This document shows positions 5,301 through 29,478 of a stretch of 64,000 nucleotides of DNA, piece by piece; within the stretch, counting starts at the first letter, position 1, and the number at the start of each line of letters is the position of its first letter. The position numbers and the translations under genes were made by a program. Below the pieces are notes generated by a model. That model was given only the letters and a program-made list of their open reading frames with translations. It ran no database searches and was not told the origin of the DNA. Source of the DNA: Candidatus Omnitrophota bacterium. GTDB taxonomy: Bacteria > Omnitrophota > Gorgyraeia > Zapsychrales > Fredricksoniimonadaceae. Where the stretch lies: contig JADFZK010000010.1 in NCBI GenBank assembly GCA_015232565.1, positions 987-64,986 on the forward strand. Direction: 5' to 3'.

Positions 5301-5532
5301 GGCGCTCGCCCACGTTCACCACCCGCCGCTCCACCTCCTCGGTGCTGGCGCCGGGATAAGACACGAATATATCGAACATCGGCACGCTGATCTGCGGCTC
5401 TTCCTCGCGCGGCAGGTTAAGCACCGCCAGCAGGCCGATGACCACCGAGAAAATAATGATCAGGGGCGTAACCTTGGAACGGGCAAAAGCCCCGATCACT
5501 TTACCGATAAAACCGCTTTCCGAAGGCTCCAT
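2314..5532 (-). CDS. RND efflux transporter permease (AcrB/CzcA superfamily)
   Basis: The protein is about 1070 aa with 12 TM segments and two large periplasmic loops, the classic RND layout. The likely start is MEPSESGFIGK at 5532, preceded by a GAGGA Shine-Dalgarno site. The ORF-track start at 5592 would overlap the upstream gene. Confidence 0.9.
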   Translation of the reverse strand: MEPSESGFIGKVIGAFARSKVTPLIIIFSVVIGLLAVLNLPREEEPQISVPMFDIFVSYPGASTEEVERRVVNVGERRLWEINGVEYIYSMIRPEGAVITVRFKVGEDVERSLIKLYSKVNANLDSLAKGGTQPFIKVRSIDDVPVLALTFHAARLDEVALRKVVSNVQNEVAAIPDVSETLITGGRLRQFRVELDGARLRERILDPAEIALIIQRANVKQAAGKLEGDRDLIFVEADAFFRSKSDLENLVVGVSQGGEVYLKDVARVVDGPDQEDRAVNIRFGVNSPVADKGPFAAATLAVSKRKGTNAAQLCGRILKKVEGLRGGVIPAGVEYTVTRDYGHTAEEKSNELLFHMALAVLGVSVLIGFVLGWREAGVVAVAIPMTLALTLAGFYFMGFTLNRITLFALIFSIGILVDDPIVDVENIVRHLRMAKNRGRDILLVAIDAVNEVQGPLILATLTVIAAILPMAFVSGLMGPYMRPIPIGASLAMLISMMVAFVATPWAACRILGGAHQKGALKEHVDGEREDWLTRLYRWYMKPLIEKPRVRKNFLLAMGGLLFLSILLVPLKAVKVKMLPFDNKNEFQVVLNMPEGTPVQVTARAINEMADYLKTVPEVRDIEAYVGASAPYNFNGLVRHYFLRSSPWQADLQVNLAGKDERKRQSHAIAVAVRPQIHAIAAKYSARVQVAEVPPGPPVLSTLVTEVYGPTEAGRRQLAEDIEKLFRSDNNVTDVDTFNARPEKLYRLRINTRLASLNGVSPGVIAGLVAESLKGNAADVAHLSGENEPVEIVLRLPAEKRQSLDGVLEVAVLSRYGNRIPLRDLVTVEEGFRDPVLYHKNLLRVAYVTGDVQGSLESPVYAILSLKPRIAALVPPGGEQKQVDQLFTAMPEGGERWSVKWDGEWQVTYEVFRDLGIAFAIVLLLIYALVVGWFQSFKTPLIIMFPIPLTLIGILPAHWMTGTFFTATSMIGMIAGAGIVVRNAIILVDFIELRRREGMSLEEAVVDAGAKRFRPMLLTAAAVVVGASVILFDPIFQGLALALIAGEVASTLLSRTAIPVIYYMMMKPKGGAL

Positions 5533-5542
5533 AGAATTATCC

Positions 5543-13687: not shown

Positions 13688-13782
13688 TGGCGGAGGTGTA
13701 TGGGAATCGAACCCACCAGGGGCTTTATCAGCCCCGCGACAGTTTTGAAGACTGCGAGCATCACCAGACACTGAACACCTCC
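13688..13782 (-). tRNA. selC: tRNA-Sec (selenocysteine, anticodon UCA)
   Basis: The minus-strand sequence is GGAGGTGT...CTTCAAAAC...GGTTCGATTCC...ACACCTCCGCCA. It has an 8-bp acceptor stem, a TCA anticodon, a long variable arm, a G discriminator and CCA, and is 95 nt long. Confidence 0.85.
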
Positions 13783-13922
13783 ACAATGTGCCAATTCTCC
13801 GGTCCCACAATGGCCGGGAGAAGTTAATTTATACCAACTGAATAATTTGTTCCGTTACGCTTATACCGCACTGCTGATACCCCGGCTTGAGCGCCATTCC
13901 CGATGGCGCGCAAATTGGTCGT

Positions 13923-14252
13923 TCACCTGCCGTTGATCCGGTTTATCAGGTCCCCCGGCTGGATCCCGGCCCGTGCGGCCGCCGAACCCGGCTCTACCGA
14001 CACCACCGTACCCTTGCCCTCCAGGACCACACCCATCGGTAAAGTAAGCGTATTGGACCGCAAGGCCACCATCTGCATGGCTGAGCCCGCCGTGCTATTT
14101 ACTGGCGTGACCGGTATACCGGCCAACGGCCTTTGCGCCGCCGGCAGGCCAGCCGGACGCTGGGACACCACCCCGAACACCAGCAACAAAACCACCAGAA
14201 AAATGATCGCGTTCACTCTATGCGCTTCCAGGTAATCGAATATTTCTTTCAT
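13923..14252 (-). CDS. Small membrane-anchored PDZ-domain protein
   Basis: The likely start is MKEIFDYL. It has one TM segment (AIIFLVVLLLVFGVV) and a PDZ-like C-terminus (GVVLEGKGTVVSVEPGSAAARAGIQPGDLINRING). Confidence 0.55.
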   Translation of the reverse strand: MKEIFDYLEAHRVNAIIFLVVLLLVFGVVSQRPAGLPAAQRPLAGIPVTPVNSTAGSAMQMVALRSNTLTLPMGVVLEGKGTVVSVEPGSAAARAGIQPGDLINRINGR

Positions 14253-14292
14253 AGGATCTTTCTGGCCGCCCAGGCCGCTGATTAAATTATCC

Positions 14293-14763
14293 TCACTTAA
14301 CCGTGAACGTCTTGGAGAAACCCGTCGGCCCGCCGGACTCGGTGAGCTGTCCGCTGTTATATTTGGTAAGCGCCTCCTGCACATTATTGGCCAGGCCGCC
14401 GAACACCTTGACCCCCCGGCGCATCAAATGCTCAAAAGGCTCGGGCCCCACATTCTTGGCGATCACCACCCCCACCCGCTCGCGCACCAGCAGGCGGGCC
14501 ACATGCAAACCCGCCTCATGGGTGGTATTTACAAAACGATTGGCCACAAAGATCGCCGTATTATGCTTGAAATCATAGACCGCAAAATAGGGCGCCCGCG
14601 AGAACACCGGCGATACCGGCGACAACAGCGAAGGCTCATCGGCCGGCACGGCCACCACATAAGGGAACACATGCGGCCGGAACGACAAAAGCATTACCGG
14701 GCTGAACAGCAGAAAAACGATCGGGATCAGAAAGTGATACCAGCTCAGTTTGATCGGCCCCAT
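14293..14763 (-). CDS. Membrane-anchored NifX/NafY-like (dinitrogenase FeMo-cofactor-binding domain, PF02579-type) protein
   Basis: One TM segment is followed by YVVAVPADEPSLLSPVSPVFSRAPYFAVYD...GVVIAKNVGPEPFEHLMRRGVKVF. This matches the HFGRAP.F.IYD...GIG..A...L...GI.V pattern. The start is refined to MGPIKL at 14763, giving a TAATG overlap with the upstream gene. Confidence 0.6.
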   Translation of the reverse strand: MGPIKLSWYHFLIPIVFLLFSPVMLLSFRPHVFPYVVAVPADEPSLLSPVSPVFSRAPYFAVYDFKHNTAIFVANRFVNTTHEAGLHVARLLVRERVGVVIAKNVGPEPFEHLMRRGVKVFGGLANNVQEALTKYNSGQLTESGGPTGFSKTFTVK

Positions 14764-15650
14764 TATTTCCCCCCGCGTGTGGTCTTTTTTAACGCCAGCT
14801 CTCTTTGCGGCAGGGCGCTGACCAGTTTTATGTGCTTGCAATCCGTACACTCCAGGCAACGGATACAATCCTTCATGTTCGGATCCTCATATACCTTCAT
14901 GCCTTCGGGGCATTTCTTCTGGCAAAGGTTGCACTCGGTACACCCGTCATCAACCTTGAGTTTCATAATGCTGACTTTATTGAAGAACGACCAGAACAGC
15001 CCCATCGGGCAAATGTACTGGCAGAACGGGCGCTTGGAAACCACGAACAGCCACAGCACCACTCCCAATATCGCCAGCTTCAGCGCGAACAACCAGCCCA
15101 CCGAACCCGGCTCAATTGTCGGCGCGCCAGTAGTAGGATTGATCGGATTCCATAATATCCACGGAATACCGGCAGTCACCGTGCCTACCGGGCACAATTT
15201 GGAGAACCAGTGCTCGGTAGTCAGGAACGGCAGGATAATTATGAAAATGATCAACATGATCCACGGCAAAACGCCCCAGTAATACGGTATGTCGATCTTG
15301 ACCGACTTGATCTTGTAAACCATTTCCTGGAACAGCCCCACCGGGCAAACCCAGCCGCAAACCATGCGGCCCACCAGTAATCCCACGATCATCAAATGCC
15401 CCACCAGAAAAAACGGAAACTGGTGGATAGCCGAATAGTGTTGCATGACCCCCAACGGGCAGGCGAAAGCCGCCGTGGGGCAAGAGTGGCAATACAGGAA
15501 CGGCAGGCACACGCTCTTGAACAGCCCCGTATAGATCTGGTTCTGGTAGATCACCGCCACGTAAACATTGGTAATGATCAGCCCGAAGAACTGGGTGGCC
15601 CGCCTAAAAGGATGTAACAGATTCATAATACGCCCATTAATGGTTAACAA
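14763..15650 (-). CDS. NapH/MauN-type polyferredoxin membrane protein (4Fe-4S)
   Basis: It has multiple TM helices with CxxxCP motifs (CHSCP, CGWVCPVG, CPVG, CPMG). The C-terminus carries two Cx2Cx2Cx3CP ferredoxin motifs (CTECNLCQKKCP and CIRCLECTDC). Confidence 0.7.
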   Translation of the reverse strand: MLTINGRIMNLLHPFRRATQFFGLIITNVYVAVIYQNQIYTGLFKSVCLPFLYCHSCPTAAFACPLGVMQHYSAIHQFPFFLVGHLMIVGLLVGRMVCGWVCPVGLFQEMVYKIKSVKIDIPYYWGVLPWIMLIIFIIILPFLTTEHWFSKLCPVGTVTAGIPWILWNPINPTTGAPTIEPGSVGWLFALKLAILGVVLWLFVVSKRPFCQYICPMGLFWSFFNKVSIMKLKVDDGCTECNLCQKKCPEGMKVYEDPNMKDCIRCLECTDCKHIKLVSALPQRELALKKTTRGGK

Positions 15651-15726
15651 TACTCCGCCCTTGACCGCCTTGACCCGCCCGGGGCACCCGGCCCCGCACG
15701 GCTCACTGAATGCCGATACACGACAG

Positions 15727-15879
15727 TCAGAGCGTGGATGAAGTCTGATAATCCTCGAAAGGATTGCCCAGCATTATCCCGATCACCGACAGTACCACCC
15801 CCACCGCCAGCACGATCCAGAACATCCGGCCGTCATCGGGCCCGATCAGCAACATGATCTTTTTTAGCTTGTCACCCAT
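15727..15879 (-). CDS. Small (50 aa) membrane protein, not in the ORF track
   Basis: It is preceded by a GAGGGG Shine-Dalgarno site. The translation is MGDKLKKIMLLIGPDDGRMFWIVLAVGVVLSVIGIMLGNPFEDYQTSSTL, and it fills the gap between coupled genes. Confidence 0.35.
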   Translation of the reverse strand: MGDKLKKIMLLIGPDDGRMFWIVLAVGVVLSVIGIMLGNPFEDYQTSSTL

Positions 15880-15965
15880 AACACCCCTCGTAAAACCGTT
15901 CCCCGTTCCGCTTTTCCCTAACCGCTTTTACCAGTGCACACGGCACCGGATCAAATTGGCGCCCC

Positions 15966-16892
15966 TCAGGCCACCGGCAAGGCGAACTGTTTATCGGCCA
16001 GCGCACCTCCCGGATACTGGCCGCCAGCCAGCACCGCGCTATCGGCCGCCGGCACACCGCTCTTTTGCAAAAGCGCCAGCGCCCGATTGATCGGCATGGC
16101 AAAACTTATGCCTGTGAACTTGCCCTGCGGGTTATACACCGCCGTATTAATACCCACGATATCGCCGTTGATGTTCGCCAGAGGCCCGCCGCTGGACCCG
16201 GGATAAGTGTAGGACTCCGTACGGATCATATTGTGATAGGTCATCCCGCCCACCGAGAACGATTGCGTACGGTCGCACACCACGCCGGTGGTAAAAACAT
16301 TCCCCGAACCAAACGCATTACCCATGGCAAAGACCAGGTCGCCGGCGCTCACGTTATCGGAATTCCCCAGGTCGGCCGACGGCAGAACCGTAAGCGTATC
16401 GATCTTCATCAAAGCCAGGTCATTGGCCTTATCCGACAGCACCATACTGGCCGCATAAGTCATTTCGGTATTAGTCGGAGTATAAACCGTCACCTGGATG
16501 TCCGTGGCACCGCCCACCACATGATAATTGGTAAGCATATACTGGTCGGCGATGATCACGCCCGAGCCGCTCACCTGCTCCGGCACCCCGTTGATGACCT
16601 TGCCGCCGGTGATGCGGGCGCAAATATGGTTCATATTATGCGCGATGTTGTTATACACCTTCTCCAGCGAAGCCGCCGACAGCGTGGGCGCGCCGCTGGT
16701 GTAAACCGGGTGCTTATAACCGATCCAGTGTTCGGCCATCTCGATCTGGAACATATGCCAGGCCATATTAAAATTGGCCACTATCGCCACCGGAACAATT
16801 ATGCCCGTCAAAAAAATTATCCAGACCGACAATTGCACATTGTCGCTAATATTAAACCAAGCCTTATTCGGTTGCTCTTTAGGGGATATCAT
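15966..16892 (-). CDS. Membrane-anchored trypsin-like serine protease (HtrA-type catalytic domain, no PDZ)
   Basis: The real start is MISPKEQ... at 16892, which makes an ATGA overlap with the upstream ATPase gene. His is at LTNYHVV, Asp at ANDLALMK, and the nucleophile motif reads GSSGGPLAN. Confidence 0.8.
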   Translation of the reverse strand: MISPKEQPNKAWFNISDNVQLSVWIIFLTGIIVPVAIVANFNMAWHMFQIEMAEHWIGYKHPVYTSGAPTLSAASLEKVYNNIAHNMNHICARITGGKVINGVPEQVSGSGVIIADQYMLTNYHVVGGATDIQVTVYTPTNTEMTYAASMVLSDKANDLALMKIDTLTVLPSADLGNSDNVSAGDLVFAMGNAFGSGNVFTTGVVCDRTQSFSVGGMTYHNMIRTESYTYPGSSGGPLANINGDIVGINTAVYNPQGKFTGISFAMPINRALALLQKSGVPAADSAVLAGGQYPGGALADKQFALPVA

Positions 16893-17716
16893 TGGACCGC
16901 CTCCAGGAATTTGCCTACCTCGGCCGAGGCGCCCGCCGTGCGCCGCGCCTGCCCGCAGGCGATCAGCGCGGCACCCCGCGCCGCGGTCATCTGCGGCGCT
17001 TCCGCAATGATCACGTTCCGGTCGAGCGCGTCGGAAAGCGCCCGCGCCATGCCCGGGATCAAGGCCACCCCTCCGGTAAAGACCACCGGGCCGTTTACCC
17101 GGCCGGCCAGCATGGCCACAATGCGCCGGGCCACCGAATGCTGTACCCCGGCCGCCAGATTGGCCGGCGCCTCTTCCGCGGCCAGCAGGCCCACGATCTC
17201 GGTCTCGGCAAAAACCGCGCACATACTGCTGATGATCGACGGACACGCCGCTTTTTCGGCCATTGCTCCCAGATCCTTAAGTCCAGTTTCCAGCCGCACC
17301 GCCACGATCTCCAGGAACCGCCCGGTTCCAGCCGCACACCGGTCATTCATCACAAAATCATAAACCAGTCCCCGTTCGTCGAGCCGGATCACTTTACTGT
17401 CCTGCCCGCCGATATCTATAATGGTGCGCGCGTTCGGCACCTGCGCTATCACGCCATAAGCCTGGCAGGTAATTTCGGTCACCGCGGCATCCGCCCATTC
17501 GACGGCACTGCGCCCGTAGCCAGTAGCGATCACCCGGGAAACATCCTCGCGCCCCAGGCCCGCCTGGCCCAGAACCTGTTTAAAAAGATCATGCGCCAGG
17601 GCCGCCTGCCGCACCCCCTGGTCGCAGATCCCGGAGGCGATCAACTGCCCAAGACCCTCATCGATGACCACCACCTTGATAGTGCGCGAACCCACATCCA
17701 CTCCGGCATATAACAT
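16889..17716 (-). CDS. BadF/BadG/BcrA/BcrD-type ATPase (HgdC-like activator of 2-hydroxyacyl-CoA dehydratase-type enzymes)
   Basis: The motifs GVDVGSRTIK, TGYGR, IIDIGGQDSKVI, FVMNDRCAAGTGRFLE, CAVFAETEIV and FTGGVAL give near-collinear motif conservation with HgdC. Confidence 0.85.
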   Translation of the reverse strand: MLYAGVDVGSRTIKVVVIDEGLGQLIASGICDQGVRQAALAHDLFKQVLGQAGLGREDVSRVIATGYGRSAVEWADAAVTEITCQAYGVIAQVPNARTIIDIGGQDSKVIRLDERGLVYDFVMNDRCAAGTGRFLEIVAVRLETGLKDLGAMAEKAACPSIISSMCAVFAETEIVGLLAAEEAPANLAAGVQHSVARRIVAMLAGRVNGPVVFTGGVALIPGMARALSDALDRNVIIAEAPQMTAARGAALIACGQARRTAGASAEVGKFLEAVQ

Positions 17717-17719
17717 AAA

Positions 17720-19138
17720 CTACCGCTCTTTCCTTTGGTTCCTGACAGTTTCTACCAATGCTTCCAGCCGCGTCCGCAAAGTCCCCTGCAAAGGGTCACA
17801 GACCGAGGGCACTTCTATCTCCAGCACCGGACAATTCCCGGCCGCCGTCACTATTTCCCGAATAACTTCGCCCTCCAGGGCGCAGTGACTGGCCCCGGGG
17901 ATACGGGAAATTATCAAAGCCTCCGAACCAAAAGCGCGCATATCGCGCTGAATGCGTTGCGCCCGTTCCTGGGCCGTACCCGCCATCGGATCGGCCAGCG
18001 CCACGCGCGCCAGGGCTTCCAAAGGCGGAATATCATCCGGTATCTGGTCCAGGGCATGGGTAAACAAATAATCCGTCCCGCAGATCCGCCCGCCGCACTC
18101 CTCCAGCAGGTTCATAGCTTTCAGGTCGGCCACCGGGTTAACCCAGAACACCCGCACTGCGTCCCGGCCATGAAACCCCACCCCCCGCCCGGTCCGCTCC
18201 CGGACCGTGGCCAGTAACTCCTCCAACACCACCAGCGTTTCGGCGCGATCGGAACAATAATGCAAGGCCAGCATCTCGGCCACCAGCAACTCCAGGGCCG
18301 GCAAAGGCGCCAGCCCGGCGGTAAATACTGCTCGGCGCAATTCCGCCAGGCAAGACCGCACTTTATTGGCCTGATGGATACTGGCCGCCAGCATCCGGTC
18401 GGTCAGCTTGACATTGCACTGCATGGTAAAACCTGTTATTACGCGCGCCAGCTCGGCCTGGACAAAAGCCACCTGCCCGGCACCGGCCCGCGCACCGCCC
18501 GGCAATAACGCCGCTTTCTCACCCGGCTCAGGTTCCCGCCGTTGAGGCAGTTCCCACCACAATACCGGATGCCCCAGGCCTTCCACCCGCTGGGCGATCG
18601 CCGAAAAATCATCACAAGTCGCGCCCACACTGCAAACCAGCAGGTCCGGCCGCGGAAAATGCTCCCCGGAAACAAAAGCCCCCAGCATGGCGCGAACCGG
18701 ACAAAACGACTCGTCCACTCCCAGGCGGTCAGCGATCGCCAGCAAACCGGCATTGTCTTCCAGCAAACACGGCAGCCACCACGCTCCGTCCGGATAAAAC
18801 GCCACCAGATCCGGATAAGCGCAGGCAATGACCGGCACCGTACCCAGGTCTTTCATGGCCCCGATCAGTGTTTTACCGGCCAACCGGGCCTGGCGCAAAC
18901 GATCTTCCTCGGTCAGCAAAAAGTTCCACAGTTTAAGCGCCGCAAAAGAATTGTCGAACTGCAGCCGGGCCAGGCGCGTATTCCCGCTCCGCACATGCCG
19001 CCCCAGCAAACCGCCATAACCGGCGTCCCGGGGTTCCAATGACCCCGCGCGCTCGTAAGCCTCGTCCCATTCCTCCAGCGTGATCTGCCGTGGAACCGCT
19101 ACCGGGCCCAGCGCCCGCTCTGCCAGGCAAAGGCTCAC
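17720..19138 (-). CDS. 2-hydroxyacyl-CoA dehydratase / DCCP-like subunit (HGD-D family)
   Basis: Cysteine ligand-type motifs FCPVRAMLG, VGATCDDF and GASHCALE are present. The gene is coupled to the activator ATPase gene. Confidence 0.65.
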   Translation of the reverse strand: MSLCLAERALGPVAVPRQITLEEWDEAYERAGSLEPRDAGYGGLLGRHVRSGNTRLARLQFDNSFAALKLWNFLLTEEDRLRQARLAGKTLIGAMKDLGTVPVIACAYPDLVAFYPDGAWWLPCLLEDNAGLLAIADRLGVDESFCPVRAMLGAFVSGEHFPRPDLLVCSVGATCDDFSAIAQRVEGLGHPVLWWELPQRREPEPGEKAALLPGGARAGAGQVAFVQAELARVITGFTMQCNVKLTDRMLAASIHQANKVRSCLAELRRAVFTAGLAPLPALELLVAEMLALHYCSDRAETLVVLEELLATVRERTGRGVGFHGRDAVRVFWVNPVADLKAMNLLEECGGRICGTDYLFTHALDQIPDDIPPLEALARVALADPMAGTAQERAQRIQRDMRAFGSEALIISRIPGASHCALEGEVIREIVTAAGNCPVLEIEVPSVCDPLQGTLRTRLEALVETVRNQRKER

Positions 19139-20202
19139 CGTAAACCCTCCATAAAAGCCCCGATACGATTTCGGACACGCTCGTTCATTCTTCCGCCGTC
19201 CAACTCAATATCCAGCAACGGCACCTCCAGCGCCGCGCGAAAACGCTCGGCTTCTGCATGCCATTTATCGCACCACAAGTGGCGCACAAAAACCACCCCG
19301 CGCACTTGCCGGGACCGGACCGCTTTTTCCATCCAGGCGAAGATCCCGCTGTTCGGCCGCTGAAAAACATCGGGGATCGCGCGAAAATACGCTTCCGTCA
19401 ACACGCCGGTCGGGTCCTCCTTGATGCGCCGCAAATCAAGCCGCGCCGGAAAAGCCCGCTCTCCCGACTCGGTGCCGTTAAAGACCACTTCGGCGCCATG
19501 ATCGGCAAAAACATCAAACAAGTCGAACTGGCGCGCGGTTAAAGGCCCGCCGATAAAACCCACCGGGACCGAGCCCGCATACGGCCGCCCGCAAGCCAGG
19601 CCGGCGAAATTCTCGTCCCGCACCTTGCCGTTCTCGCCAAAAAACTGCAATTCACGCGCAAAATCACCAGCCGACAGATCGTTCTGGCGCGCCAACACCA
19701 TCCGGCGGTTAATATCGTATTCCAACAGTATCGACACCAGGCGCTCCGGCTCCACCCGTTTACCGCCCAGCGTTACACAAAAACGGCCCAGCCGCTCCAG
19801 CTCGGCGGCATATAACGCGCTAACCTCGGGCGTGCCGCAGGTGGACGGCACATTCATCAGAAAACACGGCACCTTAGTACGCAAATTTATCAGATCGGCT
19901 CCCCGGCGCATCTGGTCGCAAGTAGTTACCAGCACTACTCCCAGGACCTGGGGATCGCTTACGGCCTCGTTAATGAACCCGCGCATATATGCGCAAACCC
20001 CGGACTCCACACTCACCGGCGGCGCACCCGAGCCGCCACAAAAAGCACTGCCGCCGGAAGTCATCCGCCACGGCACCAGGCCATGCGCCGCTATCCATTC
20101 CGCCGGCACAAAAGGACTGGTAAAGATGATCTTTTTTCCCCGCCGCAAAGCCGTACCCGGACTATCCATGGTTGCACCCCTGGCGGCCTTTAACAGTCTC
20201 AA
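19135..20202 (-). CDS. HGD-D family subunit (smaller paralog)
   Basis: The motifs GVCAYMRGF, VTTCDQMRR and HLWCDKW are present. It overlaps both neighbours. Confidence 0.6.
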   Translation of the reverse strand: MRLLKAARGATMDSPGTALRRGKKIIFTSPFVPAEWIAAHGLVPWRMTSGGSAFCGGSGAPPVSVESGVCAYMRGFINEAVSDPQVLGVVLVTTCDQMRRGADLINLRTKVPCFLMNVPSTCGTPEVSALYAAELERLGRFCVTLGGKRVEPERLVSILLEYDINRRMVLARQNDLSAGDFARELQFFGENGKVRDENFAGLACGRPYAGSVPVGFIGGPLTARQFDLFDVFADHGAEVVFNGTESGERAFPARLDLRRIKEDPTGVLTEAYFRAIPDVFQRPNSGIFAWMEKAVRSRQVRGVVFVRHLWCDKWHAEAERFRAALEVPLLDIELDGGRMNERVRNRIGAFMEGLR

Positions 20203-21361
20203 ACAACGATTGCACCCGCAAACTCAACCGGGCGTTATCGGAGGGCGAATAATCTGTCTCGATCTTCAGGTAAGGCATTCTCAGCTTGTCCTCGGCCAGC
20301 GCCTTAACGGCCTGGGCTTCTATATCGTAAGTCAGGCAGGTCCGCCAGACCACTTCGATCACACACTCCGCCCGGTATTCCCCGGCCAGAGCCTCCAGCC
20401 GCTCCAACCGCCGGTCGTTAGGCGTCATCACCGAACAGGGCAAATGAAAATATTTCGCCGCTAGCGCCCGTAACAGGTCCGGGGCATCAATGTCAATATC
20501 TTCCAGCACCGGCTTCTCGCCGGAACAGCTCTCCTGGCACACCACCAGCCCGCCATTATCCTCGATCAGGCCCAGCACGCGCTCGGCGCCGTGCGGCAAA
20601 GGCACGCCCGTCAGCAAAACCCGCACGCGCTTACCGGCCGCCGGCTTTATTTCCCGTCCGGCCAACCAGGCCGCGGCTTTGGAATACTGCTCGTGATCTT
20701 GCGGCAAACCGGCGATCAGGCTTCTCATCCCCAGCAATTCACGCCCGGTCAACGGCGGGCAAGCGCTTTGCATCAACCCGGCCAGCTCCCGCTTAAGGCG
20801 GCGGTCGCGATTCATTACCACGACGGCTTCTTTAAGCTTCTCATCCGTGATCTCAACCGCAAAACGTGCTTCCAGTTCTTTCCGCAACTTTCTCAGCTCG
20901 GCCACCCAATGCTCAAAAGCATCGGCATCGCGGGATTTTTGCGGCAATTCCAGCACATACATCGGATGCCGCTGGCCCAGCAATTCATACATTTTCTTTT
21001 TTCCGTCACAAGTGGTCTCCGCCACCACCAGACTGGCCATTTCCAGGAACGGATTGGCTTTTTCCAGGCTGTACCCAAAAGTCGACTTGATCAACGGACA
21101 AAGATTGGCCGGCAAAACCCGCTCCGCCGGCTCTACCATTTCCGCCGACCCGCCGCATAAGCACACCGGCACGCCACCCGCGGCCATGATCAGCTCCCGG
21201 GGGGTGAATTCACACATGATCCCCACGACCGGCGCCCCCTGGCTTTTACGCAATCGGGCATACGCCAGGCAATTCTGCACTTGGCCGGCAAAATGCTCCA
21301 GCGGACCGCCGTCCTGCGCCCGCGCCACCACCTGATCTTTTGTTCCGCAACATCCGGCCAT
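20162..21361 (-). CDS. HGD-D family subunit
   Basis: The motifs VGIMCEFTPRELIMAAG, ETTCDGKKKMYELL, CQESCSG and WRTCLTYD are present. Confidence 0.65.
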   Translation of the reverse strand: MAGCCGTKDQVVARAQDGGPLEHFAGQVQNCLAYARLRKSQGAPVVGIMCEFTPRELIMAAGGVPVCLCGGSAEMVEPAERVLPANLCPLIKSTFGYSLEKANPFLEMASLVVAETTCDGKKKMYELLGQRHPMYVLELPQKSRDADAFEHWVAELRKLRKELEARFAVEITDEKLKEAVVVMNRDRRLKRELAGLMQSACPPLTGRELLGMRSLIAGLPQDHEQYSKAAAWLAGREIKPAAGKRVRVLLTGVPLPHGAERVLGLIEDNGGLVVCQESCSGEKPVLEDIDIDAPDLLRALAAKYFHLPCSVMTPNDRRLERLEALAGEYRAECVIEVVWRTCLTYDIEAQAVKALAEDKLRMPYLKIETDYSPSDNARLSLRVQSLFETVKGRQGCNHG

Positions 21362-21390
21362 CCAGCACTCTTTCTTTACACCAGCCCCGG

Positions 21391-22983
21391 TTAACTTTTA
21401 GCAGCCTTGTCCCGGCAGGCCTGAAGGCACTCGCCATAGAACATTTTGACCGGCGCCCCGCCCACCAGGACCGCGCACCACATAACCTCGTCGAGCTCGG
21501 CGGGCGTAATGCCCATGGCCAAAGCTTTAGCGTAATGCAAATTAAAACAACCATGACAGCGCTGGAGCAAAACCAGCGCGAACAAGATCAATTCTTTGGC
21601 CCTTTTATCTATCACCCCGCTCGCCGTTACACTGGCCACCAGGTCGCCAAATGCCTTGGCCGATCCATTAGCCGTCGAAGCTAACCCTGCCGAAGCCGCG
21701 CCTTCCGCCATGCCCGTACAGCAGCACGCCGGCTCTTTATGCCCATCCTGTTTTTTATCCCCGCTCATTGCGCCCTCGCTTTTAGTCATCACCAGTTCAA
21801 TAGCCCCGCACCGGGCCGCCACCACTTCGCCTATCACCGCCGCGCCGGCACCGCGCGCTTTAAGTTCGCTCACCAACTCGCCCAAACGCGCCAGCGGTAC
21901 AGCTATCATCAGGCCGCCCGAAGTCTCGGCGCCCAATCCCAAATATTTATATTCATTGCCCACATCGGCGTCAGCGCATAATTCTGCGCCCACGAACTCC
22001 GCGTTACGCTCGCTGGCCCCGGATATAACCCCGGCCCGTAACAGGTCCAGCGCTCCGGAAAAGGCCGGCAAAGCATCCGCGTAGACCCGGGCCGCGGTGC
22101 CGGAATGACGCATCATGCGCAATAAATGCCCGAACAACCCAAACCCGGTTATGTCGGTGCAAGCCGAAACGCCCACCTTGACCATTGCCGCGGCGGCTTC
22201 CTTATTAAGAAGCATCATGGACTGTTCAGCCTCCAGTAACCCGGCCGCATGCTCCCGCCCTAACTGGCGCGCAAAAGTCAGGACCCCGGTGCCCAGCGGC
22301 TTGGTAAGCACCAGCACATCGCCCGGCCGGGCCGTTTCCAGGGCAACCGCCGCACCGTTCAAGATCTCCCCGGTGATGGCGAACCCCAGCTTGACCTCGG
22401 TATCTTTAATGCTATGCCCGCCCAGCAAAGCGCAGCCGGCGCTGGCCAGTGTTTCCATAGCGCCTTTTAACATCAGGAACATGATCTCTTTATCGTGAGT
22501 TTCTACCGGGAACGCCAGAATGCTCAGCGCAGTACGCGGCACCGCGCCCATGGCATAAATATCAGAAAGGCAATTGGCGGCGCAGATCTTGCCGAAGGTT
22601 AACGGGTCATCTACGCAAGGAGTGAAAACATCCACCGTCTGGACCAGCGTGGTGCCGGCATTGATCCGGTAAACACCGGCGTCATCCGCGGCGGCCAGGC
22701 CGGAAAGTACAGCGGGATCATCGACCGCCGGAAGGCGCGCCAGCAAGCCCTCCAGGTCGGCCGCCGGGATCTTGGAGGCGCAACCCGCGCTTGCGCTCAT
22801 GGCGGTCAGCTTGACACTGGCAATATCCACCGGAGTCGGCCGCTCGCCGGCACAAGGGCACAGGTCACATTCCAACAAGCTCGCGCACGGACAGGCCTGC
22901 TGGACATCACAAATGCAATGCCCCAGCGCCCTGGAACGCCCCATAACCCGGGCGCGAATCGTGTGTTTATTGTTTTCTGCCAT
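21391..22983 (-). CDS. selD: Selenide, water dikinase (SelD, Cys type) with Cys-rich N-terminal extension and C-terminal AhpD/CMD-like domain
   Basis: The SelD core includes MSASAGCASKIP, which aligns with the active-site GCGCK, and a PurM-like fold. The N-terminal ~55 aa are Cys-rich (HCICD..CPC..CDLCPC). The C-terminal ~110 aa carry an AhpD-like CxxC-type motif (LQRCHGCFNLHYAKALAMG). Confidence 0.8.
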   Translation of the reverse strand: MAENNKHTIRARVMGRSRALGHCICDVQQACPCASLLECDLCPCAGERPTPVDIASVKLTAMSASAGCASKIPAADLEGLLARLPAVDDPAVLSGLAAADDAGVYRINAGTTLVQTVDVFTPCVDDPLTFGKICAANCLSDIYAMGAVPRTALSILAFPVETHDKEIMFLMLKGAMETLASAGCALLGGHSIKDTEVKLGFAITGEILNGAAVALETARPGDVLVLTKPLGTGVLTFARQLGREHAAGLLEAEQSMMLLNKEAAAAMVKVGVSACTDITGFGLFGHLLRMMRHSGTAARVYADALPAFSGALDLLRAGVISGASERNAEFVGAELCADADVGNEYKYLGLGAETSGGLMIAVPLARLGELVSELKARGAGAAVIGEVVAARCGAIELVMTKSEGAMSGDKKQDGHKEPACCCTGMAEGAASAGLASTANGSAKAFGDLVASVTASGVIDKRAKELILFALVLLQRCHGCFNLHYAKALAMGITPAELDEVMWCAVLVGGAPVKMFYGECLQACRDKAAKS

Positions 22984-23123: not shown

Positions 23124-23708
23124 ATGAAGACTTACAACCAGACCACGGCGGCTTGTTATATTTACACTTTCAAGAAGGGCCTGCTCTCTGCTTTGGCCCA
23201 TGACCTGAAGATCCAAGTTTTTAAGTTTGAGATAAAAACCACTGGCAGTACGAAGGATACCGCGGACTGGAAAAACATTGAGGCCAGGTTTGATGCCGCC
23301 AGCCTACGCACTGTTTGCGCCATGAAGGACGGCGCGCGCTCTCCGGCAAAACTGTCGGATCAAGACAAGCGCGATATTGACCGGAACATCATTAATGCGG
23401 TTTTACACTCGCAGGAATTTCCCGGCATCACCTTTCGCTCCAGCAGTATTACCCGGCGAAAATCCGGCGTGGTTATCAAAGGCGCACTGACCATTTGCGG
23501 CCAAACCCGCACCATTACTCTCCCGGTCCAGGAATTAAATACCTGTTATCGCTCCGAACTGGTCATCGACCAGCGCGACTTTGGCATCCAGCCCTTCAGC
23601 GCCTTAATGGGAGCAATGCAAATTAAGCCGGAGATCATCGTGCGGATCGAGCTGGGTAAGGTTACGGCGAAGGCACCGCTATCGGAGCATTGTCCGACAG
23701 ACCCATAA
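23124..23708 (+). CDS. YceI-like periplasmic/lipid-binding domain protein
   Basis: ITFRSSSI...GVVIKGALTICGQTRTITLPV resembles the conserved core of the YceI family. The 3' end overlaps the convergent giant gene by 47 nt. Confidence 0.5.
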   Translation: MKTYNQTTAACYIYTFKKGLLSALAHDLKIQVFKFEIKTTGSTKDTADWKNIEARFDAASLRTVCAMKDGARSPAKLSDQDKRDIDRNIINAVLHSQEFPGITFRSSSITRRKSGVVIKGALTICGQTRTITLPVQELNTCYRSELVIDQRDFGIQPFSALMGAMQIKPEIIVRIELGKVTAKAPLSEHCPTDP

Positions 23709-26700
23709 ACTCTGGCAAGGCCACCAGCAATGGACTGATATCAACAATTATCGGCGCAAGGCCCACAGAACTTTGTAATTGCCGGATCATCGCCGGATCA
23801 AGATCAAATTTAACGCCTGGCCCTTCACCCTCCAACCGGAGATCGAGCTTGTCCCGGGCCAGATCAATACCGCCCACCTCGTCAATGAGCCCTACGGCTG
23901 GTGCACCCGCCATCGAGCTGTCAAACGGGACAAGATAAGCCTTGGCCGCACCAGTTGAATCCAGGTAGTACTTCCCACCCAGATAGCCGCCGATCTTGTC
24001 CAGGCCGTAATCCACTTCCTGTTTTCCATACCGGTTTTCAACAAAACCTCCCGAACCAAAATACTTCCCATGCCCCGGCTGGCCGATAAGAAAGCGCCTT
24101 GCGCCAATATGTTGGGCGAATTGCCGTGCATACTCGACCATGCCACTGCCCACCGCGTTCATTAAAGGCTCGATGCGCTCATAATCAGCATTGATCTCCA
24201 GGTTCTGGATCACCAGGCTGCCGTCCGTGGCGATATACAACCACGCCGCGGCCATGGTCTTTTGCGTATCTTCATCAATGACCTCAAGGACATTCAGCCC
24301 TTCATCGATCAGCCGGTCCATCATCGCATCCGGATATTGATTGGAATTCATCCCCAAACAGCAATTGGTAAAATCCCCGATAAACAAATCGTGCCCAGGA
24401 TTACGCAGGATCGGCCTGACCAAAAAATGCCGACGCTGTTTCCCAAGATCCTTTTGATATTCCGGATTATCCATCCTCGCCTGGAGCGTGGCAATACGCT
24501 CGCCCAAATGCGTGACCATTTCCAGCAGAGGAACATTGTGCTGAACATTCTCTGCTGAAACCAGCCTGCTCTGTATTGCTAACAGCATTTTCAGATTAGT
24601 ACGCTCCGCGATCGCCGAAACGATATCGCGCTTCTTTGCAGCGCCCACCACCCTAATGGCTGACACCAGCCCCCGAGGATCCCTAACAGCCGCCAGGCCG
24701 CTCTGTTTTAAGAACTGCATCAACGCCTCACGCTGGTCAGGCTCCAGCTCAGCATTCAATGTATTCACAATGTAATTCGCCACCACCCCGGCATCAGCCA
24801 CCGGGTCGTACTCTTGCATGGAATTCTCATGATACAGAAAAGCCCCTTCCGGCATTCTGCTGTTTCCGGCTCTGCCTAACCAGCGCTCAACATCGATCCC
24901 CGCACCAGCCAGAGCCTCACGCACCAACTTGTTGTGCTGTGCGATCAACTTTCCCTGTTCATTCGCCTGCTCGGTGTCTTCTATAAAAACCCAGAACCGC
25001 CCCTGCAACATGGCCGCTACCAACGCCCGAAACCGCTCATATTTCTCCGGCGTATTTCCCTTTATAAATAACAAAGCATCCCGGATCCGGGAAAGATAAG
25101 GCATATATAAACTTTGCCCCGCCTCCGCCGAAACTGCTTCGGCGGGAACTTCAAGATAACTGGCGAGCTCACCCATGAACAAGCCCTCCAGGTGCTTCGC
25201 CAGATCCGTAACGCTCATTGGCTCTGACAGGGCGTTGAGTATTTCTACGCAACGCCGGCCTTTCCCCAGATCAATAAACCCCGCCATCGTGTTAATGACT
25301 TTAAATAATGTCGTCATATCTACCCGAAAAGCCTTTCGCGAAATCTTTTCGTGCTCCACCCGCATTCGTTCCAGCACACCGCGCAAAGCCTGCATAGCCG
25401 CCCCATTGCGCAGAAAACTTTGTTTGCTTCCCAGAAACCTGACCACTACCGGCACGCCACCATTATTCTTCAGGGAAGCAGTAATATATTGCGCGCCTTG
25501 TCCGGGCAAAAAAGCCTCCAAAGCGCCCACCAGCGGCAGATATTCCCTCTGAAACACATCTCGGCTGATCTGGCGATCCTCGGAGGATCCTTTGTTCGCT
25601 TCATCCAAAGCCGACACAACATCCGTTAGCAAAGCGTCTTCACGCTCCACGCTCGGCACATCGAGACCAGACACCCAATCAAGAACATATGCATTGCCGA
25701 GCACCAAAAGCCCCCGGCGATCCCAGAACTCATACTGCTTTATTGCTTCAGGCCCCGTCTGGCCTTGCTCAACCATTCTCAGGCAAAGCGCTCCTAGTGC
25801 ATTTACAATAGCGCATTGTACAACCATCCTGGCACTCTTCAGTCGGAATTCCAGATCACCGATTGTCATTCGACCCTGCTCAACCTCCCTTATGTAAAGC
25901 AGGGTCAACGCATTCCCGATATTACGCAACGCCTCTGAATCATACTCGACCTTCTCAAGCGCCTCCATATCAACAATTGCCATCTTCCCGAGCTTGATGC
26001 GAAGCGTGTTTAGCGCATTCCTGAACGCAGGCTCTATAAGTGAATCATTGGCGCTCTTTTCCGCACGAGCCTCAAAAGCCTCCATTGTCATTTGCCCTTG
26101 TTCCACCCTCCTCAGGTAAAGCGTCCCCAGCGTAAGCGCAATCGCACACCGCACATTTACCGCTTCAATTTTATACTCGGACTCCAAAGCCTCTATAGTC
26201 AATTTTTCTTGCTCAACCAGGCTTATGTACAGAGCGATCAACGCCTCATGGTTCGCCAGCCTTAACTCTGAATCACCCAGTGTCCTCAGACGACTCTCCA
26301 GACCATCTTTGGTCCATCGGCCTTGCTCGATCAAATGCAAATAGATCAACACCAACCCATTCATGATCGCCCTGCGCACCTTCCAATCTTCTTCCGTCAT
26401 TAAGCGTAATTCTAAAGCCTCCTTGGTCGTCTGACCCTGCACCACCATCTTTAAGTAAAGCGAGCCCGAACCCTTTATGATCTGCGGCACTACATCCAGA
26501 TTTGGCTCACGCTTCAGGAAAGCCTCCATAACCTCCGCTGACACTTGTCCTTGTTCGAGCTTCCTTAAGTAAAGCTTACCCAGCAATTCAAGCGCTTGCT
26601 GAAGACTTTGATTGCCTTCTACCGCCCTCCAACGGTTTTCAAACATATCCAAGGTCATCCGGCCTTGCTCGACCATCTTCTCGTCAAACATTAGCACCAC

Positions 26701-28419
26701 ATCAACAAGCGCACGCTCCACTGCGGAATCATGCTCTTTATTAATACGGGCCCTTAAAACATCCAAAGAGATCGCCCGGCCTTGCTTGACCATCCTCGAA
26801 TATAGCAAGCCCAGCGCATGCACAACCGCTTGCCGCCCATATCGATTGTCAACCTCCAGGCGAGCCTCTAATGCGCCAATCGTCATTGTTCCTTCTTCAA
26901 CCATATTTAAATAGTGCACACCCAACGCATTCACGACAACGTGCCGCAAATACACATTCTCCAGGCGAGCTTCTAATGTGCCGATCGTGATTTCGTTTTG
27001 CTCGACACTCTTCACATAATGAAGGCCCAACACGTTCTCGATCGCGTCCTTCACGGCCTGACCCCCACTAGCACTCATCAGGCGGGCCTCTAAAGAATCT
27101 ATTGTCAACAGGCCTTTCTCGACCATCTTTGAATAAATTGCAGTCAGCACAGCCACCAATGCTTTGTTCACAAGCGAATACGCTCTGTTTGGCTGAGACT
27201 CCAGGGCGATCAGTTTCTTAAAGAAATTTTCCGTTTTATCAGGACGGGCTGTTTGTCCGGCGTCAACATTCATCTGCGCACCATCTATCATTGCCATATC
27301 TATTTTCACAACGACCATGGTATGGCTAGACGAACCTGCATCAAATTTAGCGCGATCCCTGGTTGTACGATAAACCAGCGGATCAACAATACCGGAGAAA
27401 CCCACGCCCCCGGAGAAATACTTCCGCGGGACCGCTTGCTGAGCGGCCGGATCAAGATCGTCCTTTATATAATTGAATGAACCCTTCCTGAACGCCTCAA
27501 CATATTGAGCCCAAATCTGCTCCTTCTCCTTCCTGTTCTCAATATCCACGCCGCCAGTCTTCCTTTGGTCAACATAGGCCCCGCCAAAGACGGTCTCCCT
27601 GACCTTGTCTTTATACCAAACCGCCAGGATCAGCGCAGAATAGACCTGACGTAATTGCGCAAAGTTTTTGCCTTCGTTGATCTCATTTTCAAGTATCGGG
27701 ATCACTACTTCGCGTAGGATGTTTTTGGCGATTTCGTTTGGGGCAATTGTGGGGTTTGGCGTTGAGGTAGAGACCTGGGTTGCAAAATAATCCGTTTCGA
27801 GCATTACTTTTAGGCGGCTTTTTATTACATAGGCCGCCTTTTGGTTTTCGTACACTACTGCTTTTTCCGGTACGATCCATACTTTGTTGAAGGTATCGAG
27901 CGGGATATCGGTGGTGCCGTATTTGGCATATACGGCCTTATAGACCCGGGCCCAGAAAGCCCTGCCGATTTCTCCTTCCGGATAAATAACCGATGCCGTA
28001 ACCTGCTTAAGCAGATAATCCTGGGCCAAAACATCACGCCCCATCTCCGTAACACCAAAAGCCTCCGGGACAATACGCTCGCGCTCGTATGGAGAAAGGT
28101 TTACCCAAAGATCTTTCTCGGGAACAGTGACCGAAGTCAGGAAGTACTTTATCAGGCGGGACGATTCCGCTCTCAACTCCTCGGCCGATGCACTGGAATC
28201 GCCTTGATCAAGTATAAATTCCAAACGGAACGGATTTTCTCTATCAACCTTAATACCTTTTAACAAAGGCGCCTGGAAGGCCGAGCTCAAACCCACCATC
28301 TGGCCGGGCGCGGGCAAAAGAACACTCTCCGCACGAACACCTGTTGCGGTTAGCAGAAAACAGATCAAGGTAACAAAAGCCACCCACTTACGCACGCACA
28401 CCCCCCCTACAACTGCCAC
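23662..28419 (-). CDS. Giant (1585 aa) secreted protein with about 11 tandem ~37-aa alpha-helical repeats (HEAT/PBS-lyase-like?)
   Basis: It has a signal peptide. A central array of repeats follows the form [VR].AI.NALG.LYLR.VEQG.MT.EALEARL. The C-terminal domain is Gly/Tyr-rich (GHGKYFGSGGFVENRYGKQEVDYGLDKIGGYLGGKYYLD). Confidence 0.6.
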   Translation of the reverse strand: MAVVGGVCVRKWVAFVTLICFLLTATGVRAESVLLPAPGQMVGLSSAFQAPLLKGIKVDRENPFRLEFILDQGDSSASAEELRAESSRLIKYFLTSVTVPEKDLWVNLSPYERERIVPEAFGVTEMGRDVLAQDYLLKQVTASVIYPEGEIGRAFWARVYKAVYAKYGTTDIPLDTFNKVWIVPEKAVVYENQKAAYVIKSRLKVMLETDYFATQVSTSTPNPTIAPNEIAKNILREVVIPILENEINEGKNFAQLRQVYSALILAVWYKDKVRETVFGGAYVDQRKTGGVDIENRKEKEQIWAQYVEAFRKGSFNYIKDDLDPAAQQAVPRKYFSGGVGFSGIVDPLVYRTTRDRAKFDAGSSSHTMVVVKIDMAMIDGAQMNVDAGQTARPDKTENFFKKLIALESQPNRAYSLVNKALVAVLTAIYSKMVEKGLLTIDSLEARLMSASGGQAVKDAIENVLGLHYVKSVEQNEITIGTLEARLENVYLRHVVVNALGVHYLNMVEEGTMTIGALEARLEVDNRYGRQAVVHALGLLYSRMVKQGRAISLDVLRARINKEHDSAVERALVDVVLMFDEKMVEQGRMTLDMFENRWRAVEGNQSLQQALELLGKLYLRKLEQGQVSAEVMEAFLKREPNLDVVPQIIKGSGSLYLKMVVQGQTTKEALELRLMTEEDWKVRRAIMNGLVLIYLHLIEQGRWTKDGLESRLRTLGDSELRLANHEALIALYISLVEQEKLTIEALESEYKIEAVNVRCAIALTLGTLYLRRVEQGQMTMEAFEARAEKSANDSLIEPAFRNALNTLRIKLGKMAIVDMEALEKVEYDSEALRNIGNALTLLYIREVEQGRMTIGDLEFRLKSARMVVQCAIVNALGALCLRMVEQGQTGPEAIKQYEFWDRRGLLVLGNAYVLDWVSGLDVPSVEREDALLTDVVSALDEANKGSSEDRQISRDVFQREYLPLVGALEAFLPGQGAQYITASLKNNGGVPVVVRFLGSKQSFLRNGAAMQALRGVLERMRVEHEKISRKAFRVDMTTLFKVINTMAGFIDLGKGRRCVEILNALSEPMSVTDLAKHLEGLFMGELASYLEVPAEAVSAEAGQSLYMPYLSRIRDALLFIKGNTPEKYERFRALVAAMLQGRFWVFIEDTEQANEQGKLIAQHNKLVREALAGAGIDVERWLGRAGNSRMPEGAFLYHENSMQEYDPVADAGVVANYIVNTLNAELEPDQREALMQFLKQSGLAAVRDPRGLVSAIRVVGAAKKRDIVSAIAERTNLKMLLAIQSRLVSAENVQHNVPLLEMVTHLGERIATLQARMDNPEYQKDLGKQRRHFLVRPILRNPGHDLFIGDFTNCCLGMNSNQYPDAMMDRLIDEGLNVLEVIDEDTQKTMAAAWLYIATDGSLVIQNLEINADYERIEPLMNAVGSGMVEYARQFAQHIGARRFLIGQPGHGKYFGSGGFVENRYGKQEVDYGLDKIGGYLGGKYYLDSTGAAKAYLVPFDSSMAGAPAVGLIDEVGGIDLARDKLDLRLEGEGPGVKFDLDPAMIRQLQSSVGLAPIIVDISPLLVALPEFMGLSDNAPIAVPSP

Positions 28420-28557
28420 TACAAAGCTGTCGACCCAAATACCCAGCCACTACAAGTATTTACTATATTGTTGGGAAAACAAGGGGGGCACGGCCAAAAA
28501 CGGGAAAGCGTTTTCTTCTCGACGAGAGGCGGAAAAAATACTTAAAATATCCAGCAA

Positions 28558-29478
28558 TTATTTCAACTTACCGCGGATATGCACCAGGCATTTGCGGCAT
28601 TTGTCTTTTTTGTCGGCGGCGCGGCCCTGCATCTGGCCGTCGCACCAGGTATGATCGATCTCCCAGCACTTGGCCCCATGATTGGGAAAGGAAGGGCACT
28701 GCACCTGGCGTTCGGGCGGGCAATTAAGGATCTCCCAGCAGTTGGATTTCATGGTCGTCGCGCAATAAACCTTCAGATCGCCGGTGTGTTTGCGCATGTC
28801 CCCGATCAGGCGGTCCCAGGCTTCCTTGCTTTCCAGATCCTTGGGTAAAGGCCGCCGCTCGATCCGTTCCAGGAACATTTCCACCTTGCGGCAATGATCC
28901 CGCAGGGCATCGAGCAAATGTTTGGTGCGCACATTTACTTCATCATCAGGCATGGCATCGCGCCATACCTCAAAGCCGCCCAGCACACGGCCTTTCTTGT
29001 CGATCAACGGCCCCGCCGAAACCACTATCGCATGCTCACGGCCCATGCGGTCGTTCACTTTCACCCTCTTGCCCACCACCGACTTACGCGTCTTCATGGC
29101 CTGCTTGATAGCGCAATGCCGCTCACAAAGGTCGCTGTTAAAGATCTGCGCGCAATTTACCTTGCCCACTGCATCGTTGAGCTTTAATCCGGTGAATTCC
29201 AGGCAAGCCGGGTTCATGAACTGGATCTTCATGTCCTTGTCGACCACAAAAAACGGGTAGGTGGAAGCGCGCAGGATGCTAACGGCAAATGCGGCCATAT
29301 CCTCAAATTCACCGAAAGCCTTGGTTTTGGATGACAGGAAATCCAGGAAATCGTTCTGGGCTCCGTCTTCTTTAGGCTCGACGACCTTTTTACTGCCATG
29401 CGAGGCTTCGGTAGTCTTTAAGGGCTGTTTAAACTCCCTGAGCTCACCCAGGATCCTGGCCATGCGATCGAAATTCAT
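28558..29478 (-). CDS. PAS-domain protein with C-terminal Cys-rich (8 Cys) putative metal/redox-sensing module
   Basis: The PAS-like core is FFVVDKDMKIQFMNPACLEFTGL...GKVNCAQIF. The C-terminus reads NCWEILNCP..(5)C..(8)CWEIDHTWCDG..(12)CRKC. Confidence 0.55.
   Translation of the reverse strand: MNFDRMARILGELREFKQPLKTTEASHGSKKVVEPKEDGAQNDFLDFLSSKTKAFGEFEDMAAFAVSILRASTYPFFVVDKDMKIQFMNPACLEFTGLKLNDAVGKVNCAQIFNSDLCERHCAIKQAMKTRKSVVGKRVKVNDRMGREHAIVVSAGPLIDKKGRVLGGFEVWRDAMPDDEVNVRTKHLLDALRDHCRKVEMFLERIERRPLPKDLESKEAWDRLIGDMRKHTGDLKVYCATTMKSNCWEILNCPPERQVQCPSFPNHGAKCWEIDHTWCDGQMQGRAADKKDKCRKCLVHIRGKLK

Follow-up and report, generated by a model that had tools for sequence, protein, structure and literature searches.

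The sequence considered here is a stretch of 64,000 nucleotides from Candidatus Omnitrophota bacterium (assembly GCA_015232565.1, contig JADFZK010000010.1, positions 987 to 64,986 of the forward strand), hereafter called the window, and it covers the magnetosome gene cluster of an Omnitrophota metagenome-assembled genome (MAG) from the survey of Lin et al. 2020 (PMC7602337). The analysis concerns one large gene on the minus strand of this cluster, which encodes a predicted exported protein of a very large modular family and occupies a segment that is missing from syntenic Omnitrophota magnetosome clusters. Upstream of it, on the same strand, lie genes for a PAS and Cys-rich protein, two cation diffusion facilitators (CDF, MamB/M-like) and a magnetochrome protein, followed by Fer4_5, NifB-like, PDZ, TauE, CitMHS-PDZ and LemA genes; the large gene is co-directional with the CDF (mamB/M-like) and PAS genes and begins 138 nt downstream of them. 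On its downstream side are found a convergent YceI gene, a SelD-CMD fusion and three HGD-D genes and, further on, trypsin-like proteases, another Fer4_5 gene, SelA and SelB. A preliminary description made from the letters of the window placed the gene at the entry to the biomineralization region, but genes of the conserved cluster flank it on both sides.

The open reading frame (ORF) of 1585 aa described at 23662-28419 exists, and the same gene is annotated at NCBI, where the identical protein is entered as the hypothetical protein HQL20_03555 of Candidatus Omnitrophica bacterium (1577 aa, 67,996-bp contig). A second GTG at 28395, eight codons inside the ORF, is preceded by AGGGGGG, a Shine-Dalgarno-like run, and is probably the true start, giving 1577 aa; translation from this codon yields MRKWVAFVTLICFLLTATGVRA↓ES, a textbook signal peptide with an MRKW... 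N-terminus. The features of the gene, in order from the N-terminus of the protein, are as follows.

23662-28419, minus strand: whole ORF, 1585 aa from GTG 28419, with the stop codon at 23662-23664.
28330-28419, minus strand: putative Sec-type signal peptide, aa 1-30, with basic residues, a hydrophobic core and a VRA↓ES cleavage-type site.
27406-28329, minus strand: conserved N-domain, aa 31-338, mixed alpha/beta, ending in PRKYFSGG and 50-65% identical to thousands of Omnitrophota proteins.
27178-27405, minus strand: variable linker and short beta-strand MVVVKIDMAM, aa 339-414, an 'AMIV'-type motif that recurs in many family members.
25717-27177, minus strand: repeat array of 12 clear and one degenerate HEAT-like units of 37-38 aa, aa 415-901.
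24856-25716, minus strand: all-helical domain in the AlphaFold2 model, aa 902-1188, pLDDT mostly 70-90.
24448-24855, minus strand: mixed alpha/beta and helical linker region, aa 1189-1324.
23929-24447, minus strand: GNAT-fold-like alpha/beta module, aa 1325-1497, with the motif RPILRNPGHDLFIGDFTNCC and a Gly/Tyr-rich end.
23665-23874, minus strand: conserved C-tail, aa 1516-1585, beginning with GGIDL and reaching the C-terminus.

The signal peptide proposed in the preliminary description fits this pattern; for this protein and for its family, signal peptides were judged by sequence pattern alone. The N-terminal domain, given there as about 450 aa, measures about 310 aa (aa 31-338) plus a linker. 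No internal transmembrane segment is predicted in the 1585-aa protein. Besides the signal peptide, the sole hydrophobic window outside the repeat array lies in the tail, and this window is not read as a membrane anchor because it contains Asp and Pro and is modeled as a beta-strand. The GC content within the gene (window 24001-28000) is 0.49-0.52, compared with 0.55-0.59 in the neighboring cluster genes, and a scan for promoters and terminators returned sites no more numerous than in shuffled sequence.

Among only 8,000 candidates scored in homology searches with the protein, 3,786 protein clusters matched at E<=1e-3. Leaving aside the protein itself and its closest relative (P0002), nearly all of the 120 listed matches cover only the first 21-25% of its length, at about 50-65% identity. 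Both the N-domain, starting at about aa 30-45, and a tail of about 65 aa are present in 117 of the 120 top matches, and in nearly all of these 117 no more than 12 aa separate the tail from the C-terminus. Of the 109 N-terminally complete members, 108 begin with a classical Sec signal peptide whose AxA↓Q site lies right before the N-domain. The motifs at the junctions with the variable center, here termed the payload, are near-invariant (PRKYFSGG in 116 and GGIDL in 115 of the 120 members). The protein of the window has all three family features, namely an N-domain with PRKYFSGG (aa 332-338, window 27406-27426), a tail with GGIDL (aa 1516-1520, window 23860-23874) and the Sec-type signal pattern. 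Across the family, Gly-Gly is invariant at both payload junctions, where it may form hinges or double-glycine processing sites.

Payloads vary in length between about 400 and about 2,300 aa (median about 900). The N-domains are mutually 51-91% identical (mean 63%) and the tails 28-87% (mean 47%). Because the distances of N-domains and tails correlate (Mantel r=0.45, p=0.001), while payload similarity was detected in just 45 of 4,656 protein pairs and the N-domains of those pairs are no more alike, the two conserved ends, here termed bookends, are inherited together under strong constraint around unrelated payloads. Among the 120 listed matches, the Pfam content of the payloads includes radical SAM and B12-binding domains, PEP-utilizing enzymes (PPDK_N), SAM methyltransferases, HATPase_c, GNAT, PRTase, protein kinase, peptidase M48 and ABC1, in addition to NUDIX, HAD, HIT, histidine phosphatase, WD40, TPR and HEAT; roughly half of these matches contain no Pfam domain at all.

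In GTDB species representatives, at least 588 family loci were found. The best 80 of these all lie in Omnitrophota-type MAGs, labeled Omnitrophota/Omnitrophica, 'uncultured Planctomycetales' (binchicken MAGs) or Candidatus Elulimicrobium, and the family is seen here only in MAGs of this type. Among the same 80 loci, several often share one MAG, and some of the MAGs come from lakes and groundwater and were collected in surveys without a focus on magnetotactic bacteria. The preliminary description had named as a sign against its proposal that the protein might be a common surface protein in non-magnetotactic relatives; at the level of the family such a distribution was found, with non-magnetotactic status judged by the aim of the survey alone. 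The MAG of the window carries at least five copies (HQL20_03555, _08120, _08085, _04970 and _01955), and no second member lies within the window. At least nine of the 80 loci contain head-to-tail tandem arrays of family genes (L027, positions 1-5655; also L009, L011, L032, L035, L038, L049, L064 and L080), which suggests local duplication with subsequent replacement of the payload as the way in which the family grows.

The bookends themselves are without annotation in the resources consulted. Neither Pfam nor NCBIfam holds a model for the N-domain or the tail, and NCBIfam returned 0 matches for the whole protein. Sequence searches of the PDB with the single protein and with two profiles returned nothing meaningful; matches of the A3 profile were confined to payload columns, and for the bookend regions the profiles had no PDB match. 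For structural comparison, the N-domain of the protein was joined to its tail and modeled with AlphaFold2 using a 60-member alignment (mean pLDDT 68.6, pTM 0.72, with low-confidence residues mainly in the linker). In this model, the N-domain is of mixed alpha/beta type and contains six long helices along with two beta-hairpins, three strands and helices make up the tail, and the strand after the N-domain (MVVVKIDMAM) is also formed. Foldseek found no match for it, neither in the PDB (best E 0.16, TM<0.15) nor in BFVD (best E 0.5, TM<0.2). Cys is absent from both the N-domain and the tail of the protein. The motifs WVNLSPYE and GGIDLT/N were not found in the literature searched, a description elsewhere being possible, and term searches of two preprints on giant Omnitrophota proteins (10.1101/2023.11.21.568195; 10.64898/2026.06.07.730766) and of Seymour et al. 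2023 (PMC10066038) found no mention of the conserved N-domain and C-tail. The bookend family is very large and apparently undescribed. A PADLOC annotation of the protein was discarded as a chance-level match.

The position of the gene was examined by synteny, using the neighboring PAS gene as an anchor in three related Omnitrophota contigs (L082, L083 and L084), whose PAS proteins are 82%, 80% and 65% identical to that of the window, respectively. The elements involved in the window are the following.

28558-29478, minus strand: PAS protein with a C-terminal Cys-rich 'two-CW'-type region.
23124-23708, plus strand: YceI-like gene, overlapping the 3' end of the large gene by 47 nt (23662-23708).
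23638-28558, no strand: 4.9-kb segment missing from syntenic Omnitrophota magnetosome clusters, a lineage-specific insertion between the convergent PAS and YceI genes.

Both L082 and L084 share the gene order of the window (MCR, CDF, CDF, PAS, then YceI, then SelD-CMD, three HGD-D, BcrAD, trypsin, Fer4_5 and NifB-like), and in both the PAS gene directly adjoins YceI. In blastn comparisons, L082 is colinear with the window on either side at 66-82% DNA identity; its position 10923 aligns to window 28559 and its position 10970 to window 23637, so that 46 nt in L082 stand against 4,921 nt in the window. The large gene was also sought in L083, where it is absent and a different gene follows PAS. 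In the window, the insertion sits between the 3' ends of two convergent genes, and the C-terminus of YceI is about 14 codons longer than in L082, being read from the antisense strand of the inserted gene; with the insertion, YceI apparently lost the stop codon it originally had. The closest and only full-length relative, P0002, is 39% identical and shares all of its main parts with the protein, from the N-domain through the HEAT repeats and the C-terminal domain to the tail. Its gene is flanked by alanine racemase (Alr), TsaD/E and tRNA-synthetase genes and, at the opposite end, by LptF/G, which is a housekeeping context with no magnetosome cluster. Because the gene is absent from all three Omnitrophota magnetosome clusters compared and because P0002 is encoded among housekeeping genes, the large gene is not a conserved component of the magnetosome gene cluster. 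A search of related magnetosome clusters for orthologs, as had been proposed, yielded none at this position in L082, L083 or L084, and the link to magnetosome chains drawn in the preliminary description, in which repeat and scaffold proteins were considered typical, is not supported.

The genes around the insertion have a distribution of their own. The PAS/'two-CW' protein comes after the CDF pair in at least eight Omnitrophota MAG contigs, and distant relatives of it (49-55% identity) occur in records of Syntrophales, Riflebacteria and Planctomycetota. A conserved block adjoins the mamB/M-PAS genes and comprises SelD-CMD, three HGD-D (2-hydroxyacyl-CoA dehydratase-like) genes, a BcrAD-type activator, a trypsin-like protease, Fer4_5, NifB-like and PDZ genes. 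This block (window 13837-22983, minus strand; L082 11668-20646; L084 11650-20927) is found in several Omnitrophota magnetosome clusters, and in the window SelA and SelB are also close by (10374-13810).

Within the protein of the window, the payload opens with the repeat array. A profile hidden Markov model (HMM) built from nine seed units detects 12 units of 37-38 aa each, with per-unit E-values of 1e-10 to 5e-21; ten of these are contiguous at aa 415-790, two more lie at aa 828-901, and the 37 aa between the two groups (aa 791-827) form a degenerate unit. This periodicity is far beyond chance, and the tandem helical repeats of the preliminary description are therefore real. Tandem Repeats Finder detected no DNA-level repeat in the large gene. 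The repeats are therefore old and divergent, and an assembly artifact, such as the collapsed or expanded repeat considered in the preliminary description, is unlikely. The only Pfam match of the protein, to HEAT_2, scores 22 bits against the whole protein and 25.1 bits against the repeat region alone, compared with a cut-off of 27.7. As the homologous repeats of P0002 pass the Pfam thresholds of both HEAT_2 (52.1 bits) and HEAT (31.3 bits), the units can be classed by sequence as divergent HEAT/PBS-lyase-type repeats, in agreement with the resemblance noted earlier. They share with PF13646 (HEAT_2) and PF02985 (HEAT) the two-helix repeat and the (R)xAIxxALGxL core, but differ from Pfam HEAT in their period of 37-38 aa, their long second helix (MTxEALEARL) and a score just under the cut-off. 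The solenoid is probably a protein-binding platform.

The remainder of the payload (aa 902-1497) was treated as the C-terminal domain, which is rare. A word-index search with it found 4 relatives, and a full profile search of 1.84 billion representative proteins raised the number to 462 at E<=1e-3, with 55 at E<=1e-30; conservation is widest in the last 190 or so residues. Some of these relatives lie within proteins of 4,000-7,000 aa, one of which, with 7085 aa, is annotated as Elusimicrobiota. In P0131, the helical and GNAT-like module follows canonical HEAT repeats without bookends, and in P0125, P0140 and P0162 it is located inside proteins of 4,000-7,000 aa, again without them; bookends are absent from all eight large relatives of the domain that were examined. 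Since the module is also found without bookends and inside giant proteins, it is mobile and shared with the latter. In the AlphaFold2 model of the domain (pLDDT 76, pTM 0.63), alpha/beta modules come after a helical part, and the 50 best PDB matches in Foldseek are without exception GNAT acetyltransferases (GCN5, PCAF, Naa80, AAC(3)). Pfam GNAT does not match the protein, and ten relatives of the domain are without any Pfam match. The hallmark of the domain is the motif R-P-x-x-R-x-P-x-x-D-L-F-x-G-[DN]-x-x-x-C-C with an invariant Cys-Cys. In comparison to GNAT acetyltransferases, to which its best fold matches point, the module is set apart by its invariant G-[ND]-x-x-x-C-C, the missing Pfam GNAT match and a CoA motif that is not conserved. 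It is described here as GNAT-fold-like with a possible Cys nucleophile, and its activity is probably that of a transferase for acyl or related groups, or else of an enzyme that depends on Cys. The Gly/Tyr richness reported earlier was confirmed for a stretch of 60 aa (21% Gly, 11.5% Tyr); this stretch ends the GNAT-fold-like module, but it does not form a domain ending the protein, as a separate conserved tail of 70 aa follows.

Several known protein systems can be compared with this architecture. In the two preprints on giant Omnitrophota proteins, the commonest modules are HEAT_2, HATPase_c, radical SAM, TPR, PPDK_N, NUDIX, Lysine_decarbox, HAD, GNAT and methyltransferases; 94% of the long Omnitrophota proteins have a signal peptide or transmembrane helices, and C39 peptidase domains are noted (10.1101/2023.11.21.568195; 10.64898/2026.06.07.730766). 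These giants, or 'Archaeovorins', have in common with the bookend family the phylum, the signal peptides and the HEAT scaffolding beside cytoplasmic-type enzymes. The domain pool of the payloads is that of the giant proteins, and the C-terminal domain of the present protein also occurs in proteins of 4,000-7,000 aa. In contrast, bookend proteins are 0.9-2.7 thousand amino acids (kaa) long with a single payload, compared with 10-147 kaa in the giants, and unlike these they are without transmembrane helices beyond the signal peptide. With 1585 aa and one payload, the protein of the window falls outside the Archaeovorin definition (>10 kaa, many enzyme modules, transmembrane segments), and the bookend family looks like a short, single-payload counterpart of the giants.

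MARTX toxins carry exchangeable enzyme modules between N- and C-terminal regions that are conserved, and these toxins combine type I secretion with glycine-rich repeats and a cysteine protease domain. The likeness to the bookend family is one of architectural logic only, since the latter has putative Sec signals and globular bookends, and no similarity of sequence or fold is known between the two. C-terminal sorting domains (T9SS CTD, PEP-CTERM, LPXTG) offer a second analogy, as they also combine a Sec signal with a short conserved domain at the extreme C-terminus. No curated NCBIfam or Pfam sorting model (T9SS CTD, PEP-CTERM, LPXTG, GlyGly-CTERM) matches, however, and the bookend tail differs in that it is without a transmembrane helix and basic cluster, its ends are not basic and it is always paired with the N-domain.

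The gene is likely one paralog of a very large exported modular family that landed by chance in the region of the cluster. Membership in the family, the bookend architecture, the signal pattern, the insertion and the HEAT and GNAT-like character of the payload are shown by the data, and export, the role of the bookends and any enzymatic activity are inferred. According to this explanation, Sec would export the protein, the N-domain and tail, inherited together, would serve all members as a carrier module that sorts, anchors or delivers them, the HEAT solenoid would bind partner proteins and the GNAT-like module would modify a target outside the cytoplasm; the payload would work on the surface of the cell, in its periplasm or on a cell that is host or prey. 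A further reading, put forward tentatively and with considerable doubt, takes N-domain and tail as the two halves of an undescribed carrier or sorting module, seen here only in Omnitrophota-type MAGs, with thousands of different payloads, most of them cytoplasmic-type enzymes, inserted in between. Such a module would steer export, display on the surface or delivery to host or prey, and the payload might be released at the Gly-Gly junctions by double-glycine (C39-type) peptidases, domains of which are reported in the giant proteins of the phylum. Several observations weigh against the explanation as a whole. No conserved partner gene stands beside family members in the 80 loci, where no immunity-like or secretion-machinery gene recurs. 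Many payloads of the family are cytoplasmic-type and cofactor-dependent (radical SAM, B12-binding, PEP-utilizing, kinases), a poor fit to Sec export, which is itself predicted from a sequence pattern. The bookends have no known homolog, so that the role suggested for them is a guess, and contact between N-domain and tail is suggested by the pTM of the model alone. The GNAT fold scores are weak (E 0.01-0.1; TM 0.5-0.63, target-normalized; local pLDDT 50-83), and the acetyl-CoA pyrophosphate-binding motif Q/RxxGxG/A after strand beta-4 is not conserved: at its position the protein reads NAVGSG and relatives read DEVGSA, NRVGES and EEIKKS. Finally, the large gene may be co-expressed with the cluster, given its direction and its distance from the mamB/M-PAS genes. 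The cytoplasmic-type payloads favor one of two readings, that the proteins are delivered into another cell or that their topology is predicted wrongly, and the giant-protein papers meet the same puzzle of radical SAM domains after export (10.1101/2023.11.21.568195; 10.64898/2026.06.07.730766).

Delivery into another cell is the core of the proposal that the family comprises polymorphic effectors or toxins for a host or prey, with the bookends as delivery or translocation module, comparable to the conserved arms of MARTX toxins, and the variable center as effector, perhaps freed at the Gly-Gly junctions. This is a narrower version of the favored explanation and no true alternative to it. Conserved ends around hypervariable, mostly cytoplasmic-type enzyme centers, signal peptides throughout the family and the invariant Gly-Gly at both junctions would agree with it, as would the proposal that Omnitrophota are host-dependent or predatory and the domain repertoire and C39 peptidase domains of the giants (10.1101/2023.11.21.568195, PMC10066038). 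Argued from sequence and by analogy, it is nevertheless unlikely, as the bookends are unlike known delivery domains and the 80 loci contain none of the recurring immunity-like or secretion-machinery genes mentioned above. The cofactors required by many payloads would instead be at hand if the proteins were anchored in the membrane with their bulk in the cytoplasm, as is predicted for many long Omnitrophota proteins (10.64898/2026.06.07.730766). This is improbable for the bookend family: basic residues, a hydrophobic core and AxA↓Q in 108 of 109 members correspond to a cleaved N-in signal that leaves the mature protein outside, the one further hydrophobic window is the tail segment with Asp and Pro that is modeled as a beta-strand, and N-domain and tail have no Cys. 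Least probable of all is a lineage-specific magnetosome scaffold, for which a bookend gene would have been recruited, its product exported to the magnetosome lumen and its HEAT solenoid employed to organize lumenal proteins. The 138-nt distance to the co-directional CDF-PAS genes and the cluster-type genes on both sides would suit such a role, and a Sec signal is compatible with the lumen, which is topologically periplasmic. However, the likeness to magnetosome scaffold proteins (MamK, MamJ, MamY, Mad28) is limited to gene location, as no homology to them was detected and the gene is absent from the three syntenic clusters. Furthermore, P0002 has a housekeeping context, the family is ubiquitous in Omnitrophota MAGs, including those of surveys not aimed at magnetotactic bacteria, and an insertion between convergent 3' ends that damaged the YceI stop codon is a typical neutral landing site.

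With respect to magnetosomes, the protein is an ordinary hypothetical protein, and it is the architecture it exposes that is large and unannotated. For magnetosome research, the outcome is negative but useful: the large gene does not belong on a list of magnetosome genes, and it marks an insertion in an otherwise conserved Omnitrophota cluster. For the biology of Omnitrophota, it points to thousands of predicted exported proteins with common, unannotated front and tail domains, whose payloads are drawn from the same domain pool that builds the giant proteins of the phylum. Profile models of the N-domain and tail could be used to list candidate effectors. If the interpretation is true, the shared carrier module would provide a direct handle on how uncultured Omnitrophota deliver enzymes outside the cell, and the two-half carrier would represent a new export or effector-delivery signal on a phylum-wide scale.

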